DNA of 64,000 bases from Specibacter sp. (lineage in GTDB: Bacteria; Actinomycetota; Actinomycetes; Actinomycetales; Micrococcaceae), in NCBI GenBank assembly GCA_046714315.1, contig JBKKBD010000212.1, forward strand, positions 30,152 through 94,151, in the 5' to 3' direction. The notes under the pieces were generated by a model, which had not been told where the DNA came from, made no database searches, and saw only the letters and a program-made list of their open reading frames with translations. The translations under genes and the position numbers were made by a program. Of this stretch, positions 5,326-24,600 are shown in pieces. Position 1 is the first letter of the stretch; every line of letters begins with the position of its first letter.

Positions 5326-7122
5326 CTAGCGCCTGACCTTGCGCGCAGATCCCGAGAGTTGGTGAGCATCGAGGGCAAACAAGTCAGTCGATCCAGCCGT
5401 TGCGGCACCCAGCAGGCTCGCGCATTGCGGCAGGATCTGTTGGGCGTGGAAATGGGCCAACACGAGTTGGTTTCGCGCCAGGTCCGCGTCGTCAGTTCCG
5501 GCAGCAGCTACGGCGGCCCGCGCCAGCATCCACGCACTGGTGCATAGCCCCCACATCCGGAGGTACGGCGTTGACCCGGATAGCACAGCGTTTGGATCCG
5601 CCTGTCCGGTACGGAGCATCCAGTTTGTGGCTTCCTCAAGGGCGTCGAACTGGCGGCCCAGCTCCTGACGGATACCGACAAATTCTGTGCCGGCGGCGTC
5701 AAGCTCACCTTCGATCTCACGCATGGTAGCGATGAACTCCAGGACTGAAGCGCCACCACGAAGTCCCAGTTTGCGGCCCACGAGGTCGGCAGCCTGGATG
5801 CCGTTGGTCCCTTCATAGATGGCTGCAATGCGCACATCCCGAACATGCTGGGCAGCCCCAGTTTCCTCGATGAAGCCCATCCCACCTTGGATCTGCAGAG
5901 CCAGCGAGGTTAGCTCGTTGCCCAGATCTGTTCCGTAGGATTTACAAATCGGGGTCAGGATTCCAACGATCTCGTCTGCCCGGGCCCGGACTGCAGGGTC
6001 CGGATCGTTGGTGCTCAGGTCCACGTACACGGCGTCGAGCAAGGTGAGGTATCGCAGGGCCGCAATGGAGGCCCGCTGGGTCATCAGCATGCGCCGAACA
6101 TCAGGGAAGTCAATGATGGGCGAGCTATTGCCGGTTGCACCGATTGCGAGGCCCTGCTGGCGGTCCTGCGCATAGGCCAGGGACTGCTGGTATGCGCGCT
6201 CAGCCACTGCCAGTCCTTGGACACCAACGCCGAGACGTGCGCTGTTCATCATGATAAACATGATGCGCATGCCCCGGTTTTCTTCACCGATCAGATATCC
6301 GGTGGCATTTTCATATGAAAGTACGCAGGTAGGGGAGGCGTGAATGCCCATCTTGTGTTCGAGTGAAACAGTCTCCACACCATTTCGCTCGCCCAAAGAG
6401 CCGTCGTCGTTGACGAGGAACTTCGGAACAATGAAACAGGATATGCCGCGAGTACCTTCGGGAGCGCCCGGAGTCCGCGCGAGAACCAGGTGCACAATTT
6501 GTTCGGCCATGTCGTGATCGCCGTAGGTGATAAAGATTTTCTGCCCTGTGATGGCGTAGCTGCCGTCGTCGTTCTTCACCGCCCGGGTAGTCAAGGCGCC
6601 AACGTCCGAGCCCGCTTGCGGCTCCGTGAGGTTCATGGTGCCGGTCCACTCGCCGCTGACCATCTGGGGCAGGTAGCGCTGTTTCAAATCGTCGTTACCG
6701 TAGTGCAACAGTGCCTCAATGGCACCTTGTGTCAACAGTGGGCACAGCGAGAATGCCATGTTGGCGCTGGTCATGAGCTCCTGGATCACCAAGCCCACAG
6801 TGCGGGGGAAGCCGCCTCCGCCAAACTCTTCCGGCAGCGGCACCGATCCCCAACCGGCCTCCACATACTGTTGGTACACCTCCTTGAAGCCCTCCGGTGT
6901 CACCACAGTTCCGTCGGCTTGGAGCCGGGATCCCTGGACGTCGCCTTGGCGGTTCGTCGGGGCTACCGCCTCTGTCATGAACTCACCGCATTGCTCAAGG
7001 AGTTCGACGACGGTCTCGAGGTCGGCGTGTTCGAAGCCTGGCAGTTTGGCAATGTCCGGGTATCCCACAACATGCTCAAGGGCGAAGGCGATGTCTGCAA
7101 TTGGCGGCTGGTATTCGTTCAT
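5326..7122 (-). CDS. Acyl-CoA dehydrogenase (long, FadE5/DmdC-like family)
   Basis: TMNLTEPQAGSDVG, GQKIFIT, EHKMGIHASPT, IYEGTNGIQA, with an extra C-terminal domain. Confidence 0.93.
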   Translation of the reverse strand: MNEYQPPIADIAFALEHVVGYPDIAKLPGFEHADLETVVELLEQCGEFMTEAVAPTNRQGDVQGSRLQADGTVVTPEGFKEVYQQYVEAGWGSVPLPEEFGGGGFPRTVGLVIQELMTSANMAFSLCPLLTQGAIEALLHYGNDDLKQRYLPQMVSGEWTGTMNLTEPQAGSDVGALTTRAVKNDDGSYAITGQKIFITYGDHDMAEQIVHLVLARTPGAPEGTRGISCFIVPKFLVNDDGSLGERNGVETVSLEHKMGIHASPTCVLSYENATGYLIGEENRGMRIMFIMMNSARLGVGVQGLAVAERAYQQSLAYAQDRQQGLAIGATGNSSPIIDFPDVRRMLMTQRASIAALRYLTLLDAVYVDLSTNDPDPAVRARADEIVGILTPICKSYGTDLGNELTSLALQIQGGMGFIEETGAAQHVRDVRIAAIYEGTNGIQAADLVGRKLGLRGGASVLEFIATMREIEGELDAAGTEFVGIRQELGRQFDALEEATNWMLRTGQADPNAVLSGSTPYLRMWGLCTSAWMLARAAVAAAGTDDADLARNQLVLAHFHAQQILPQCASLLGAATAGSTDLFALDAHQLSGSARKVRR

Positions 7123-7166
7123 GATCGTCAGCGTACCCTCGAGTAACTTGTTTGTCGCGGAAATGG

Positions 7167-7182
7167 GTTACTTGTGAGTAAT
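7167..7182. promoter_or_regulatory. Palindromic operator GTTACT-N4-AGTAA(T) upstream of the acyl-CoA dehydrogenase
   Basis: GTTACTtgtgAGTAAT; a perfect version lies upstream of fadD (23478-23493). Confidence 0.65.
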
Positions 7183-7197
7183 GTTGCGTGGATCACA
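7182..7197. promoter_or_regulatory. CRP/GlxR-like site
   Basis: TGTTG-cgtgga-TCACA versus consensus TGTGA-N6-TCACA. Confidence 0.45.
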
Positions 7198-7403: not shown

Positions 7404-7799
7404 CTAGAGAGTCATGTTGCCTTGGGTAAGCGTGCCAACCCAGAATCCCAGGGCTGCGGCGCCTACGCTGGCAGCAAGTGTGCCAAGGGCGTTGGCGAAC
7501 GAGGCGGCGTAGCGCTTCTCACTGAGGAGGCGCAGTGTTTCGTAGCTGTTGGTGCTGAAGGTCGTGTAGCCGCCCAGAAACCCCGTGCCCAGAATGAGTG
7601 CCCATTCCCTTGGGACCACGTTTCCAGCTGCCAGGGCAGTCAAAAGGCCCAGTGCCAGGGAGCCGGAGACATTGATGGTGAACGTTGCCCAGGGAAACAC
7701 CGTCTGGAAACGCCGGCCTATGGCGCCATCCAGCAGGAAGCGGGCAATGGCACCGAGCCCGCCGGCCAGGGCCATGGCGATGAAAACAAAGGGAGTCAT
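7404..7799 (-). CDS. crcB: Fluoride channel Fluc/CrcB, subunit 2
   Basis: GGLGAIAR, TINVSGS, GTGFLGGYTTFST. Confidence 0.93.
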   Translation of the reverse strand: MTPFVFIAMALAGGLGAIARFLLDGAIGRRFQTVFPWATFTINVSGSLALGLLTALAAGNVVPREWALILGTGFLGGYTTFSTNSYETLRLLSEKRYAASFANALGTLAASVGAAALGFWVGTLTQGNMTL

Positions 7800-8290
7800 G
7801 AACGTCCGCCGTCCTGTGATCGTGCTGGGGCTGTACGGCTTGCTGGCTCAGAAATAACCCGGCGGCTACCCAAAGCCATGCCCGCCCACGTGGCCAGGCC
7901 GCCAACCAGCACCGTCCCAAGGCCATAAAGCACCGCCGACCCCAGGCCCTGGGTAGCAGATCCGGACAGTGAAACCATCCCCACGGCAAGCGTGCTGTAG
8001 GTGGTGAAGCCGCCACAAAATCCCGTTCCCAGGAGGAGCTGGAGCCGCCGCCTCCGAGGCAGCGCCGGGGTATCGGAAGGATCATGCCGTGGCGGATGCA
8101 GGACCGCCACCCGGGCAAGCGATGAAAGCAACAGCCCGAGCACAAAAGCACCAACAACATTGGCCAACACGATCGCCCAGGGAATGCCACCGGCGTCGGA
8201 AATGGCCAGAACCAGACCCTCACGCGCCGCGGCACCAAGTGAGCCACCAATCCCTATGAGAACCAGGGAATGAAGGAGGTGGGGCTTCAC
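7796..8290 (-). CDS. crcB: Fluoride channel Fluc/CrcB, subunit 1
   Basis: GGSLGAAAR, ANVVGAF, GTGFCGGFTTYST; 4-nt overlaps with both neighbours. Confidence 0.9.
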   Translation of the reverse strand: MKPHLLHSLVLIGIGGSLGAAAREGLVLAISDAGGIPWAIVLANVVGAFVLGLLLSSLARVAVLHPPRHDPSDTPALPRRRRLQLLLGTGFCGGFTTYSTLAVGMVSLSGSATQGLGSAVLYGLGTVLVGGLATWAGMALGSRRVISEPASRTAPARSQDGGRS

Positions 8291-21582: not shown

Positions 21583-23397
21583 TTAGGAAGGCTTCTTGCT
21601 CAGGTAGATGTCTTCCACGACCGCGTTGTAATCCTTGAGGACCTGGCCACGCTTGACCTTCATGGACGGGGTGAGGTGGCCGGAAGTCTCGGTGAAGTCG
21701 GTGTCGACGATCCGGAACTGCTTAATGGCTTCGGCGGAAGAGACCGAGCTATTTGCCCTGTCTACGGCCTTCTGTACCGCGGCGAGGACAATCGGGTCCT
21801 TGCCTGCTTGTGCCACCGTGATGCCTTCGCTGAGGCCGTGAGCCTTGCCCCATTGCGGCAATGCTTCTTCATCCAGCGTGACGATCGCGGCGATGAACGG
21901 GCGCTGCTCGCCAATGACGACGCACTGGGAAACTATGGCGTCAGCCCGGATCTGATCTTCCAGTAGGGCCGGGACAACGTTCTTGCCACCTGAGGTGACA
22001 ATGATTTCCTTTTTACGCCCCGTGATTTTCAGGAATCCCTGATCGTCGAGCTCGCCAATGTCTCCGGTCCGGAACCAGCCGTCAACGAAGGTTTCGGCTG
22101 TTAGGTCATCGCGGCCGTAGTAGCCCTTCATGACGCACACACCCTTGGTGAGGATCTCGCCGTCGGCCGCGATCTTCACGGCATTGCCCGGCAGGGGCGC
22201 GCCCACGGTACCGATCTTGATCCGTTCCGGACGGTTGACGGTGATGGGCGCCGTAGTTTCGGTGAGGCCGTAACCTTCCAGGATTTGCAGGCCGATGCCC
22301 TGGAAGAAGTAGCCAAGACGCTCACCGAGGGGCCCGCCGCCGGAGACGGCGTGGCGAACATTGCCGCCCATTGCCGCACGAAGCTTGGAGTAGACAAGTT
22401 TGTCGAACAGGGCATGCTTGGCCTTGAGGACCAGGCCAACCTTGCCCGTCTGGGCTGCGCGAGCGTAGTCAATGGCGGTGTGGGCGGCCAAGGCGAAGAT
22501 CTTGCCCTTCCCGGCAGTTTCGGCCTTGAGTGACGCCGAGTTGTACACCTTTTCAAAGACGCGCGGCACAGCCAAAATGAACGTGGGTTTGAAGCTCTGC
22601 AGGTCATCGAGCAGGTGCTTGATGTCCGGGGTGTGGCCCACCTTTGCGCCACCAGCCACGGCCAAAACTGAGATGTACCGCGCAAACACATGGGCCAGCG
22701 GCAGGAACATGATGGTCTGGGAGCCCGGCGTCACCACGGTCTGGGCCAGGACGGCGAGTGCGTTCTCACTCAGCTCCACAAAGTTACTGTGTGTAAGCAT
22801 GCACCCCTTGGGGCGGCCCGTGGTGCCCGAGGTGTAAATAATGGTGGCGATGTCATCGAGGCCGTTGGCCGTGCGGGCGGCCTCCAAGGTCTCATCGCTG
22901 ACGTCGCGGCCGGCCTCACGCAGGACGTCCAGGCCATCGCCCTCAAGTTGCCACACGTGGGCCAACGTGGTGAGTCCTTCGTTGTGAGCAGCCTGGCGGA
23001 TGATGTTCTCGTGGGTGCCGGTTTCAGCGAAAACTGCCACCGCAGCCGAATCGCCCAGATTCCAGGCCACCTGAGACGGTGAGGACGTTTCGTAGATCGG
23101 CACGGAAATTGCACCGGCAAACCAGATTGAGAAGTCAACGAGTGACCATTCGTAACGTGTGCGGGCCATGATGCCTACACGATCACCAACGCCGATGCCA
23201 GAGGCGATCAGGCCCTTGGCGATGGCGCTAACGTCGGCCAGAAATTCCTTGGCGGATACATCAACCCAGACGTTGTCTGCATTGCGTTTGGAGAAAAGTG
23301 CAGGATTGGCGGCCAGCTTGGCCTGACGCAGAACGAAATCGGTGGTGTTCATGGTGGGCGGGCTGACCACCTTGGCCGGAACGGAAATCTCTTGCAC
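21583..23397 (-). CDS. fadD: Long-chain fatty acid-CoA ligase (FadD15-like)
   Basis: IYTSGTTGRPKG, EGYGLTET, WFRTGDIG, GHLTPSMKVKR. Confidence 0.93.
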   Translation of the reverse strand: MQEISVPAKVVSPPTMNTTDFVLRQAKLAANPALFSKRNADNVWVDVSAKEFLADVSAIAKGLIASGIGVGDRVGIMARTRYEWSLVDFSIWFAGAISVPIYETSSPSQVAWNLGDSAAVAVFAETGTHENIIRQAAHNEGLTTLAHVWQLEGDGLDVLREAGRDVSDETLEAARTANGLDDIATIIYTSGTTGRPKGCMLTHSNFVELSENALAVLAQTVVTPGSQTIMFLPLAHVFARYISVLAVAGGAKVGHTPDIKHLLDDLQSFKPTFILAVPRVFEKVYNSASLKAETAGKGKIFALAAHTAIDYARAAQTGKVGLVLKAKHALFDKLVYSKLRAAMGGNVRHAVSGGGPLGERLGYFFQGIGLQILEGYGLTETTAPITVNRPERIKIGTVGAPLPGNAVKIAADGEILTKGVCVMKGYYGRDDLTAETFVDGWFRTGDIGELDDQGFLKITGRKKEIIVTSGGKNVVPALLEDQIRADAIVSQCVVIGEQRPFIAAIVTLDEEALPQWGKAHGLSEGITVAQAGKDPIVLAAVQKAVDRANSSVSSAEAIKQFRIVDTDFTETSGHLTPSMKVKRGQVLKDYNAVVEDIYLSKKPS

Positions 23398-23477: not shown

Positions 23478-23493
23478 GTTACTGAAGAGTAAC
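23478..23493. promoter_or_regulatory. Perfect palindromic operator GTTACT-N4-AGTAAC upstream of fadD
   Basis: GTTACTgaagAGTAAC; overlaps a minus-strand TAAAGT -10 candidate (23497-23492). Confidence 0.7.
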
Positions 23494-23598: not shown

Positions 23599-24600
23599 AT
23601 GATTTCGCCCCAAACTGAACCCGCCCTCACCGTAACGTCAACAGCTGACCTCAAGCCCTTGGCGTTGGGGATCGATATTGGCGGCACCAAGGTGGCTGCC
23701 GGCGTTGTTGACGGTACCGGGGTCATCATCGAAGAGCTACGGCGAGTCACTCCGGGCCGCGATGCTCGTGCCGTCGAAGAAGTGATCGTGGAACTTGTCA
23801 CCGAGCTCGGTACCCGGCACAAGATTGCATCCGTGGGTATCGGGGCAGCGGGCTGGATGGACCTCGATGGTGGGCGGGTGGTGTTCAGCCCACATCTGGC
23901 CTGGCGCGATGAGCCACTGCGGGACACGCTGGAAAGCATGTTGGAGCGCCCCGTCCTGGTAACAAACGACGCAGATGCTGCTGCCTGGGCTGAATCCCGG
24001 TTCGGGGCCGGCCGTGGCCACTCGAGGATGATCATGCTGACCTTGGGTACGGGCATCGGCGGAGCCCTTGTCCTGGACGGCAAGGTTGAACGTGGTGCCT
24101 TTGGCATGGCAGGCGAATTCGGCCACCAGATCATCATGCCCGGCGGGCACCGCTGCGAATGTGGAAACCGGGGGTGCTGGGAGCAATACGCGTCCGGAAA
24201 CGCATTGGGCAGGGAGGGTCGCGAGTTGGCGGGGAAGCAATCGCCCATGGCCGCCGGCCTCTTGGAAGCTGCGCATGGAAAACAGGAAAACATCACCGGG
24301 ACTGTCGTCACCGAGCTGGCTCTGCAAGGGGAAGCAACGGCTCAAGAGCTCGTTGCGGAAGTGGGTGACTGGCTGGGTCTGGGCATGGCCAACCTTGCCG
24401 CAGCACTCGACCCTGCGATCTTTGTCATCGGCGGGGGACTTAGTACTGCCGGTGAACTGCTGTTGGATCCGGCCAGACGCGCTTACTCCCGGAATTTGAC
24501 CGGACGCGGATATCGGCAAGAGGCGGCTATCACCGTGGCGCAACTGGGAGCCGCCGCCGGACTCATCGGGGCTGCCGATCTTTCCCGCATCCGCCGTTGA
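23599..24600 (+). CDS. glk: ROK-family glucokinase
   Basis: GIDIGGTK, NDADAAA, LGTGIGG, GEFGH, CECGNRGCWEQYASG. Confidence 0.92.
   Translation: MISPQTEPALTVTSTADLKPLALGIDIGGTKVAAGVVDGTGVIIEELRRVTPGRDARAVEEVIVELVTELGTRHKIASVGIGAAGWMDLDGGRVVFSPHLAWRDEPLRDTLESMLERPVLVTNDADAAAWAESRFGAGRGHSRMIMLTLGTGIGGALVLDGKVERGAFGMAGEFGHQIIMPGGHRCECGNRGCWEQYASGNALGREGRELAGKQSPMAAGLLEAAHGKQENITGTVVTELALQGEATAQELVAEVGDWLGLGMANLAAALDPAIFVIGGGLSTAGELLLDPARRAYSRNLTGRGYRQEAAITVAQLGAAAGLIGAADLSRIRR

Follow-up and report, generated by a model that had tools for sequence, protein, structure and literature searches.

The 64,000-nucleotide (nt) stretch analysed here (the window) belongs to a 3.75-Mb draft genome of Specibacter sp. 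with 61% G+C (G000), in which it occupies positions 30152-94151 of contig C212. Judged by one conserved gene, the closest named relatives are Arthrobacter psychrolactophilus B7 and Specibacter sp. The window carries two genes of fatty-acid degradation, fadE, encoding an acyl-CoA dehydrogenase, and fadD, encoding an acyl-CoA synthetase, and a palindrome of the form GTTACT-N4-AGTAAC, or close to it, lies upstream of each. A previous inspection of the letters alone (the sequence-only reading) had reported three such elements, two at fadE, here called O1 and O2, and one at fadD, and had assigned them to a single beta-oxidation regulon under a dimeric repressor not recognizable in the window. All three sequences are present at exactly the places it gave (Table 1), Pfam domains bear out the identity of the two flanking genes, and O2, which had been described as degenerate, departs from GTTACY-N4-RGTAAC at 2 positions. 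The window is otherwise devoid of copies with up to 2 mismatches, in keeping with the earlier statement that it holds no other convincing one. The comparisons presented below argue that the sites are almost certainly operators of a lipid-catabolic regulon, and the regulon as predicted is conserved throughout the Micrococcaceae, a smaller version of it being shared by the class Actinomycetes. Systems of this kind, composed of a transcription factor, its operator and a regulon, are ordinary; this one is apparently undescribed in the Micrococcaceae, as we found no description in the searchable literature.

The window by itself does not make the case, since 0.52 motif matches are expected in it and at least 2 were obtained in 11 of 100 shuffles. 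Across all of G000, the perfect GTTACT-N4-AGTAAC occurs 3 times, and 6 further copies have one mismatch; the mean number of perfect copies for 960 half-sites of equal base composition is 0.13, and only 6 of the 960 reach 3. Searches of other genomes gave 162 matches to GTTACY-N4-RGTAAC in 61 genomes of the family versus 24 for a reversed control, with a bimodal distribution of counts (0 or 3-8 per genome), and 93 versus 11 in 119 other genomes of the class. The enrichment over the control was thus 7-8 fold in the 180 genomes of family and class. When G000 was scored with a matrix, none of the top ten hits fell inside a long reading frame; O2, with 11.5 bits, ranked about 35th. The significance of the motif therefore lies in whole-genome counts, in placement at lipid genes and in cross-genome conservation, not in the window counts.

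The genes that adjoin the sites point to lipid catabolism. One of the perfect copies in G000 lies 33 base pairs (bp) upstream of a gene for a 405-residue acyl-CoA dehydrogenase (contig C23), another is at the start of an alpha/beta hydrolase gene directly 3' of a gene for an AidB-like acyl-CoA dehydrogenase (contig C201), and the third is the one upstream of fadD. One-mismatch copies are found upstream of fadE and of the fadA-fadB operon (contig C89). We fetched about 60 site loci from 10 genomes, and the neighbours that recurred were the 405-residue acyl-CoA dehydrogenase, fadD with its ROK neighbour, and fadA/fadB, together with a 4HBT_2 thioesterase, a 2,4-dienoyl-CoA reductase, an ADH_N_2 enone reductase, an SDR/carboxyltransferase pair, an MFS transporter, a PAQR/hemolysin-III protein encoded next to uppS, and a repeat-rich membrane protein encoded next to gltX. 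A genome scan for GTTACY-N4-RGTAAC near fad genes, the check that the sequence-only reading had named, places copies with at most one mismatch at lipid genes. A shared palindromic operator is thus seen at several fatty-acid degradation genes and operons in G000 and at their orthologues in many genera; the single beta-oxidation regulon foreseen earlier is recognizable in a motif that marks fadD, fadE, a second acyl-CoA dehydrogenase gene, fadA-fadB and accessory lipid genes across genera.

Two further intergenic regions of G000 deserve mention. The region between uppS and the hemolysin-III (PAQR) gene (C197:9511-9564) contains two sites 38 bp apart, and the retention of a site here by several genera points to a membrane-homeostasis gene among the members of the regulon. 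In C161:19150-19300, a one-mismatch site, GTTACCTGCGAGTAAC, is located 39 bp upstream of a gene for a BNR-repeat protein and in the same intergenic region a typical CsoR-type box, ATACCCCCTAGGGGTAT, precedes a CsoR-like gene of 104 codons.

The sites also hold their positions. Of 21 genomes of the same genus, 19 have ATTACY-N4-AGTAAC at the O1 position before their fadE orthologue, although the flanks diverge, and O2 is kept only in the closest relatives (L008, L009 and L011). The site in the fadD/ROK intergenic region is found in G003, G012, G020 and G044 as well, and that upstream of fadA is kept in 26 of 30 genomes, which represent about 22 genera of the family. From 78 distinct sites we derived the 20-bp consensus A-W-GTTACY-sRYs-RGTAAC-W-T, in which the centres of the half-sites are 10 bp apart. 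The spacer varies from site to site but the half-sites do not, and the Y of one half fails to pair with the R of the other in 22 of 49 distinct sites. Because the halves vary independently and their centres are 10 bp apart, the palindrome is best read as the target of a dimeric helix-turn-helix protein, as had been supposed from the window, and not as a hairpin.

An origin of the palindromes by chance, or a structural role such as that of an RNA hairpin or terminator, is extremely improbable and is already contradicted by the comparative data: the low significance of the two copies in 64 kb, and one genomic near-match that belongs to a terminator-like structure, are set against the enrichment in 180 genomes, the constant position at orthologous lipid genes in many genera, the unpaired Y/R positions beside a variable spacer, and the location of the fadA site between -35 and -10, upstream of transcription. 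The near-match in question, a weak matrix hit at C142:756-800, was rejected as an operator, as it supplies one side of the stem in a long hairpin (TTACTGGCGGGTATAAAA/TTTTATACCCGCCAGTAA) with a T-run behind it (C142:750-805).

Table 1. Sites, predicted promoter elements and genes at the fadE and fadD loci, and the candidate regulator gene. Coordinates are those of the window except where a contig is named.
Feature	Position	Strand	Remarks
Operator O1 of fadE	7167-7182	-	GTTACTTGTGAGTAAT on the window strand, ATTACTCACAAGTAAC on the gene strand; kept upstream of orthologues
Operator O2 of fadE	7132-7147	-	CGTACCCTCGAGTAAC on the window strand, GTTACTCGAGGGTACG on the gene strand; left half-site perfect, right half fused to the predicted -10
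Predicted -10 of fadE, TACGCT	7130-7135	-	7 nt before the ATG (7122-7120); proposed from conservation
Predicted weak -35 of fadE, GCGACA	7153-7158	-	17 nt upstream of TACGCT; nnnACA at 17-nt spacing in relatives; tentative
Conserved CRP/GlxR-shaped box	7182-7197	-	TGTGATCCACGCAACA (TGTGA-N6-cAACA); one base in common with O1
fadE	5326-7122	-	FadE5-type acyl-CoA dehydrogenase, 598 amino acids; Pfam Acyl-CoA_dh_N, _M, _1 and _C
Perfect operator	23478-23493	.	GTTACTGAAGAGTAAC; divergent fadD/ROK-kinase intergenic region
fadD	21583-23397	-	Long-chain acyl-CoA synthetase, 604 amino acids; Pfam AMP-binding and AMP-binding_C_3
ROK-family sugar kinase gene	23599-24600	+	333 amino acids; divergent from fadD; Pfam ROK at residues 23-329
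C102, fasR orthologue	C102:4178-4816 of G000, outside the window		TetR protein of 212 amino acids; best regulator candidate

The relation of the sites to promoters is clearest at fadA. In 26 of 30 upstream regions, the operator fills the 17-nt spacer after a conserved TTGCAc, and its right end forms the -10 hexamer TAACAT or TAACGT; as a predicted promoter, this is the classical geometry of a repressor site. At fadE, the sequence GGTACGCTG is unchanged, and always 7 nt away from the ATG, in 21 of 21 orthologous upstream regions, and we infer that the TACGCT hexamer within it is the -10 element, implying a leaderless mRNA. Because TACGCT is read in this way, O1 would extend from -60 to -45, with its centre at about -52.5. 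O2 consists of a perfect left half-site, four bases, and a GGTA that runs into the predicted -10, and this is also the design of a conserved site upstream of the gene for a FasR orthologue described below: a half-site, N4, and RGTA entering a TANNNT hexamer. Its resemblance to that design and its retention in the nearest relatives leave O2 supported as a probable second site of fadE in this lineage. The candidates for the -10 of fadD are TAACAT inside the operator and a conserved TAGAGT 33 nt downstream. A promoter scan with a model of the E. coli type detected nothing at the fadE or the fadD site. Overlap of the operator with the predicted core promoter is seen at fadA, at fasR and at O2 of fadE; at the main sites of fadE and fadD it would depend on where transcription starts.

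A box of the CRP/GlxR shape, TGTGATCCAC(GCAACA), accompanies O1 in most genomes of the genus, and several other genera have its reverse complement, GTGGATCACA, a few bases past the fadA operator (L064-L075). One could envision that the protein bound at fadE and fadD acts from about -53, whether by activation or, in competition with a CRP/GlxR-like protein for the TGTGATCCAC box, by anti-activation. The -10-like hexamers downstream of the main operators would suit such a role better than that of an occluding repressor, as TACGCT is fixed 7 nt before the fadE start codon, TAGAGT at fadD would place the operator there at a similar distance, and the conserved box overlaps O1 by one base; in addition, FasR is an activator at the fas promoter in mycobacteria (PMC7382501). 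However, it would make no physiological sense to activate degradation genes in the absence of acyl-CoA, at fadA, and likewise at fasR, site and -10 overlap, this lineage has acquired O2 across the -10 of fadE, and the TAACAT within the fadD operator is itself a possible -10. We consider activation or anti-activation from -53 unlikely. Simple occlusion of the promoter is nevertheless not established for the main fadE and fadD sites, which may lie upstream of the core promoter, near -53.

If the sites are operators, then the question is which protein binds them. No gene for a transcription factor adjoins any of the roughly 60 sites examined in 10 genomes, which agrees with the earlier proposal that the repressor is not to be found in the window. 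We propose that the cognate protein is most likely C102, the single TetR protein of the FasR/FdmR clade in G000 (Table 1). C102 aligns with FasR of M. tuberculosis (PDB 6O6P) over residues 8-209 with an E value of 6e-51, the recognition helix VSKPVLYQHF is identical, and the reverse search with mycobacterial FasR returned C102 as the best hit in G000. The helix-turn-helix of C102 is invariant across the family (12 genera), and the protein is a full-length orthologue of the FasR (Rv3208) group with its conserved helix-turn-helix.

The second line of evidence is a site upstream of fasR itself. In the Micrococcaceae it reads (A/G)TTACY-N4-RGTA(A/G)A, with the right half running into a TANNNT hexamer (TAGAAT or TAAACT), and in Streptomyces, Actinomadura, Kitasatospora, Nocardioides and others it reads GTTACY-N4-nGTA(G/C)GAT, again entering a TANNNT -10. 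In 110 loci, TTACY-N4-RGTA occurs 56 times in the 29.6 kb upstream of fasR orthologues versus 0 times in the remaining 364 kb. C102 thus appears to regulate its own gene. The third line comes from the published co-crystal of FasR with a 25-mer, TACCCGTACGTAGAACTCGCCAGTA, which is bound by two dimers side by side (PMC7382501). This 25-mer holds two (T/A)AC-N6-GTA units, one of which is ACT-N4-AGTA. Long-chain acyl-CoA releases FasR from DNA (PMC7382501, PMC5541348).

The targets of C102 would differ from those of its namesake. In the fragmented assembly of G000 we found no reading frame of the size of type I fatty-acid synthase (FAS-I), the region of the fabD-fabH-acpP-fabF operon has no site above 4 bits, and this operon has its own regulator of the PucR/MabR type. 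As G000 lacks both a FAS-I-sized frame and a site at the fab operon, C102 would need other targets. Control of fas, accD1 and accBC, a trait of the FasR group, was not found for C102; sites do occur upstream of a carboxyltransferase gene in two other genera. C102 is therefore a member of the FasR group by sequence, with a predicted regulon that differs.

The class-wide survey brought in a further comparison, as one family stood out whose FasR is almost identical to that of M. tuberculosis over the stretch compared; we take this family to be the Mycobacteriaceae. In its genomes, tandem sites 25 bp apart precede a gene for an Fe-S/CCG membrane oxidoreductase of about 1000 residues that resembles EtfD, and a single site, GTTACCCACCAGTAAC, is located 67 bp upstream of a gene for a 611-residue FadE5-like protein (G133), about 8 kb from an FdmR-like TetR gene. 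The FadE protein of the window is 37% identical to this FadE5-like protein. The same operator is found at the same target, fadE5, in mycobacteria. Pairs of perfect sites exactly 25 bp apart were seen at L211:9951-9991, L212:9970-10010, L213:9972-10012 and L214:3585-3625, in mycobacteria-like genomes and one other high-GC genome, before an EtfD-like or a FadE5-like gene. By analogy, this spacing recalls the two adjacent FasR dimers on the published 25-mer.

The mycobacterial genomes encode three related TetR proteins, FasR, a second with the helix VSKPVVYEHF and a third with the helix ISKPMLYLYY. The gene for the third, at a distance of about 8 kb from the fadE5 site, belongs to a TetR/MaoC/large-FabG/FadE5 neighbourhood, which we take to be Rv0238-Rv0244c of the M. 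tuberculosis map, with Rv0238 near fadE5. Rv0238 is FdmR, a TetR-family repressor of fatty-acid degradation genes in M. marinum and M. tuberculosis that is responsive to long-chain acyl-CoA (Dong et al. 2021, as cited in PMC12403877 and PMC10501769). A tblastn search of G000 with the mycobacterial FdmR-like protein detected no FdmR orthologue, only C102, at 27% identity; neither of the two extra mycobacterial paralogues has an orthologue in G000, in which C102 is the only member of the FasR/FdmR clade found.

Other TetR proteins of G000 were also considered. The genome has 35 TetR genes, the upstream regions of which were scanned for sites, and 32 of the proteins were used as three concatenated queries on a panel of 13 genomes, C102 being searched separately. 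Of 34 TetR genes tested, only C102 and C210 were present in all site-bearing genera, and no TetR protein was both present in all site-bearing and absent from all site-free genomes of the panel. C210 has an operator of its own, a palindrome with 13-bp arms (GATACTCAGCGTA-N5-TACGCTGAGTATC), and was set aside; its gene heads a cluster for a thiolase, a large FabG of 454 residues, a MaoC dehydratase and an acyl-CoA oxidase, and in the shared intergenic region (C210:2900-3062) the palindrome is flanked by two direct GTTAC half-sites. The gene at C23:11139-11732 is the only TetR gene with a related palindrome upstream, but this is a different one, GTTAAT-N4-ACTAAC. The palindrome, GTTAATAATCACTAAC (C23:11069-11084), is situated between the TetR gene and a carboxyltransferase gene, near branched-chain keto-acid dehydrogenase genes, and from these neighbours the product looks like a local regulator of the BkaR type. 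A second repeat of the GTTAGT type follows the palindrome, which would be a local operator with a related half-site. C242 gave the strongest match to TetR_C_24 but is encoded beside paaA with a PaaR-like box, and was classed as PaaR-like. The operators reported for XNR_0706, SCO3201 and MftR are unrelated to the motif. The ROK protein encoded beside fadD was likewise rejected as the regulator, as it is a kinase whose ROK domain leaves no room for an N-terminal winged helix-turn-helix.

Several points weigh against the assignment to C102. The link between C102 and the operator is drawn by comparison, and a site upstream of fasR could signify merely that fasR is one more member of the regulon of another factor. 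G000 has this site in a degenerate form (CCTACTGGCGGGTAGA). C102-like genes (68% identity) are found in G072 and G074, both of which lack an exact site; G072 does retain ATTACCGCGCAGTACA upstream of fasR. G043, a family genome of 2.4 Mb, has 8 exact sites and a FasR-like protein that is only 41% identical; its congener G080 was found to be without any site. The systematic screen for the regulator covered the TetR family only. Finally, mycobacterial fasR genes are mostly without an upstream site and the motif is instead found at fadE5 and the etfD-like gene, so the mycobacterial motif may be that of FdmR, in which case motif and protein would not correspond one-to-one across the clade.

Several of these points would be explained if the operator and its regulon are real but the binder is another transcription factor, either from outside the TetR family or unrecognised, with fasR among the genes it regulates. 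The absence of a regulator gene next to any site, the restriction of the screen to TetR-family genes, the FasR-like genes in genomes without exact sites and the many sites of G043 beside a diverged FasR-like protein would all be consistent with such a factor, as would the existence of a paralogue, FdmR, that is known as the repressor of fatty-acid degradation in mycobacteria (PMC12403877). However, fasR promoters of several orders carry an overlapping site of this type, the DNA published as bound by FasR has the same TAC-N6-GTA skeleton, FdmR and the third mycobacterial paralogue have no orthologue in G000 and both find C102 as their best hit there, and besides C210, with its own palindrome, no further TetR protein occurs in all site-bearing genera. 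A different binder is therefore improbable in our view. The best explanation as a whole, which we hold to be probable, is that of an acyl-CoA catabolic regulon under a TetR repressor of the C102 type.

We envision the C102-type regulon working as follows. A dimeric TetR-family sensor of long-chain acyl-CoA, of the FasR/FdmR clade, would bind the palindrome, and since the site covers the -10 and the spacer at most targets, its binding would block RNA polymerase. When fatty acids are available, FadD would convert them to acyl-CoA, the ligand would open the dimer, and the repressor would leave the DNA, so that fadD, fadE, the gene for the second acyl-CoA dehydrogenase, fadAB and the accessory genes are induced. 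At fadE, where O2 would overlap the -10, O1, centred at about -52.5 and abutting the CRP-like box, might cooperate with O2 or block an activator.

The proposed regulon can be compared with known systems. FdmR of mycobacteria follows the same logic, that of an acyl-CoA-responsive TetR repressor, and has the same class of targets; the difference is that G000 is without an FdmR orthologue. C102 is the sequence orthologue of FasR (Rv3208/Cg2737), the TetR-family regulator of FAS-I and acc genes in mycobacteria and corynebacteria; the sites share the TAC-N6-GTA skeleton with FasR-bound DNA, and the effector of FasR is long-chain acyl-CoA (PMC7382501). Unlike the sites described here, which are at degradation genes, those of FasR serve fatty-acid synthesis genes, which FasR activates in mycobacteria and represses in C. 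glutamicum. The FadR proteins of Bacillus (also named YsiA) and Thermus thermophilus, TetR-family repressors of beta-oxidation operons that acyl-CoA releases, likewise combine a palindromic box over fad promoters, an acyl-CoA effector and autoregulation (PMC5397183). Their operator sequence is different, however, their chains (1VI0 and 3WHB) match C102 with an E value of only about 4e-6, and their gene is inside a fad operon, whereas that of the candidate C102 is unlinked. FadR of E. coli is likewise a global repressor of fad genes that senses long-chain acyl-CoA, but it belongs to the GntR family and has a different operator. The operator pattern of GntR-type regulators is unlike GTTACY-N4-RGTAAC.

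One possible hypothesis for these relations is that a FasR-type TetR protein was the ancestral repressor of fatty-acid degradation in the Actinomycetes, with one operator throughout the class. This protein would have been duplicated in mycolic-acid bacteria, where FasR came to activate FAS-I and FdmR kept the degradation regulon and the old operator, while Actinobacteria without FAS-I (Arthrobacter, possibly Streptomyces) would run both autoregulation and fad repression from a single FasR orthologue. We offer this combination of events tentatively, as a conjecture that is somewhat more apt to fail than to hold in all its parts. FasR and FdmR of mycobacteria may thus be specialised descendants of one older fad repressor; if this is true, then orthologues named FasR outside the mycolic-acid bacteria need reannotation. 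The novelty is modest: besides a regulon apparently undescribed in the family, it consists in the possibility that an orthologue of a fatty-acid synthesis activator is an ancestral degradation repressor. For the Micrococcaceae, soil-dwelling and cold-adapted bacteria with uses in bioremediation and in lipid biotechnology, the analysis gives a testable regulon and operator for fatty-acid catabolism, and the 20-bp operator together with an acyl-CoA sensor could be used as a fatty-acid-inducible switch.

Some features of the two loci and of the genome remain to be described. The perfect operator GTTACTGAAGAGTAAC is 81 bp from the GTG start codon of fadD, which is preceded by an AAGGAG ribosome-binding site, and 106 bp from the ATG of the ROK gene. 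The ROK-fadD arrangement is retained in other genomes, and the kinase gene may be co-regulated with fadD. Among the 960 half-sites of equal base composition, the top count in G000 belongs to GTTCAT-N4-ATGAAC, with 5 perfect palindromes, which may be the operator of another regulon. Directly beyond the regulatory region of fadE, on the minus strand, there is a gene for a CrcB fluoride channel (7404-7799), and it is followed on the same strand by a frame of 164 codons (7404-8290 for the two together).

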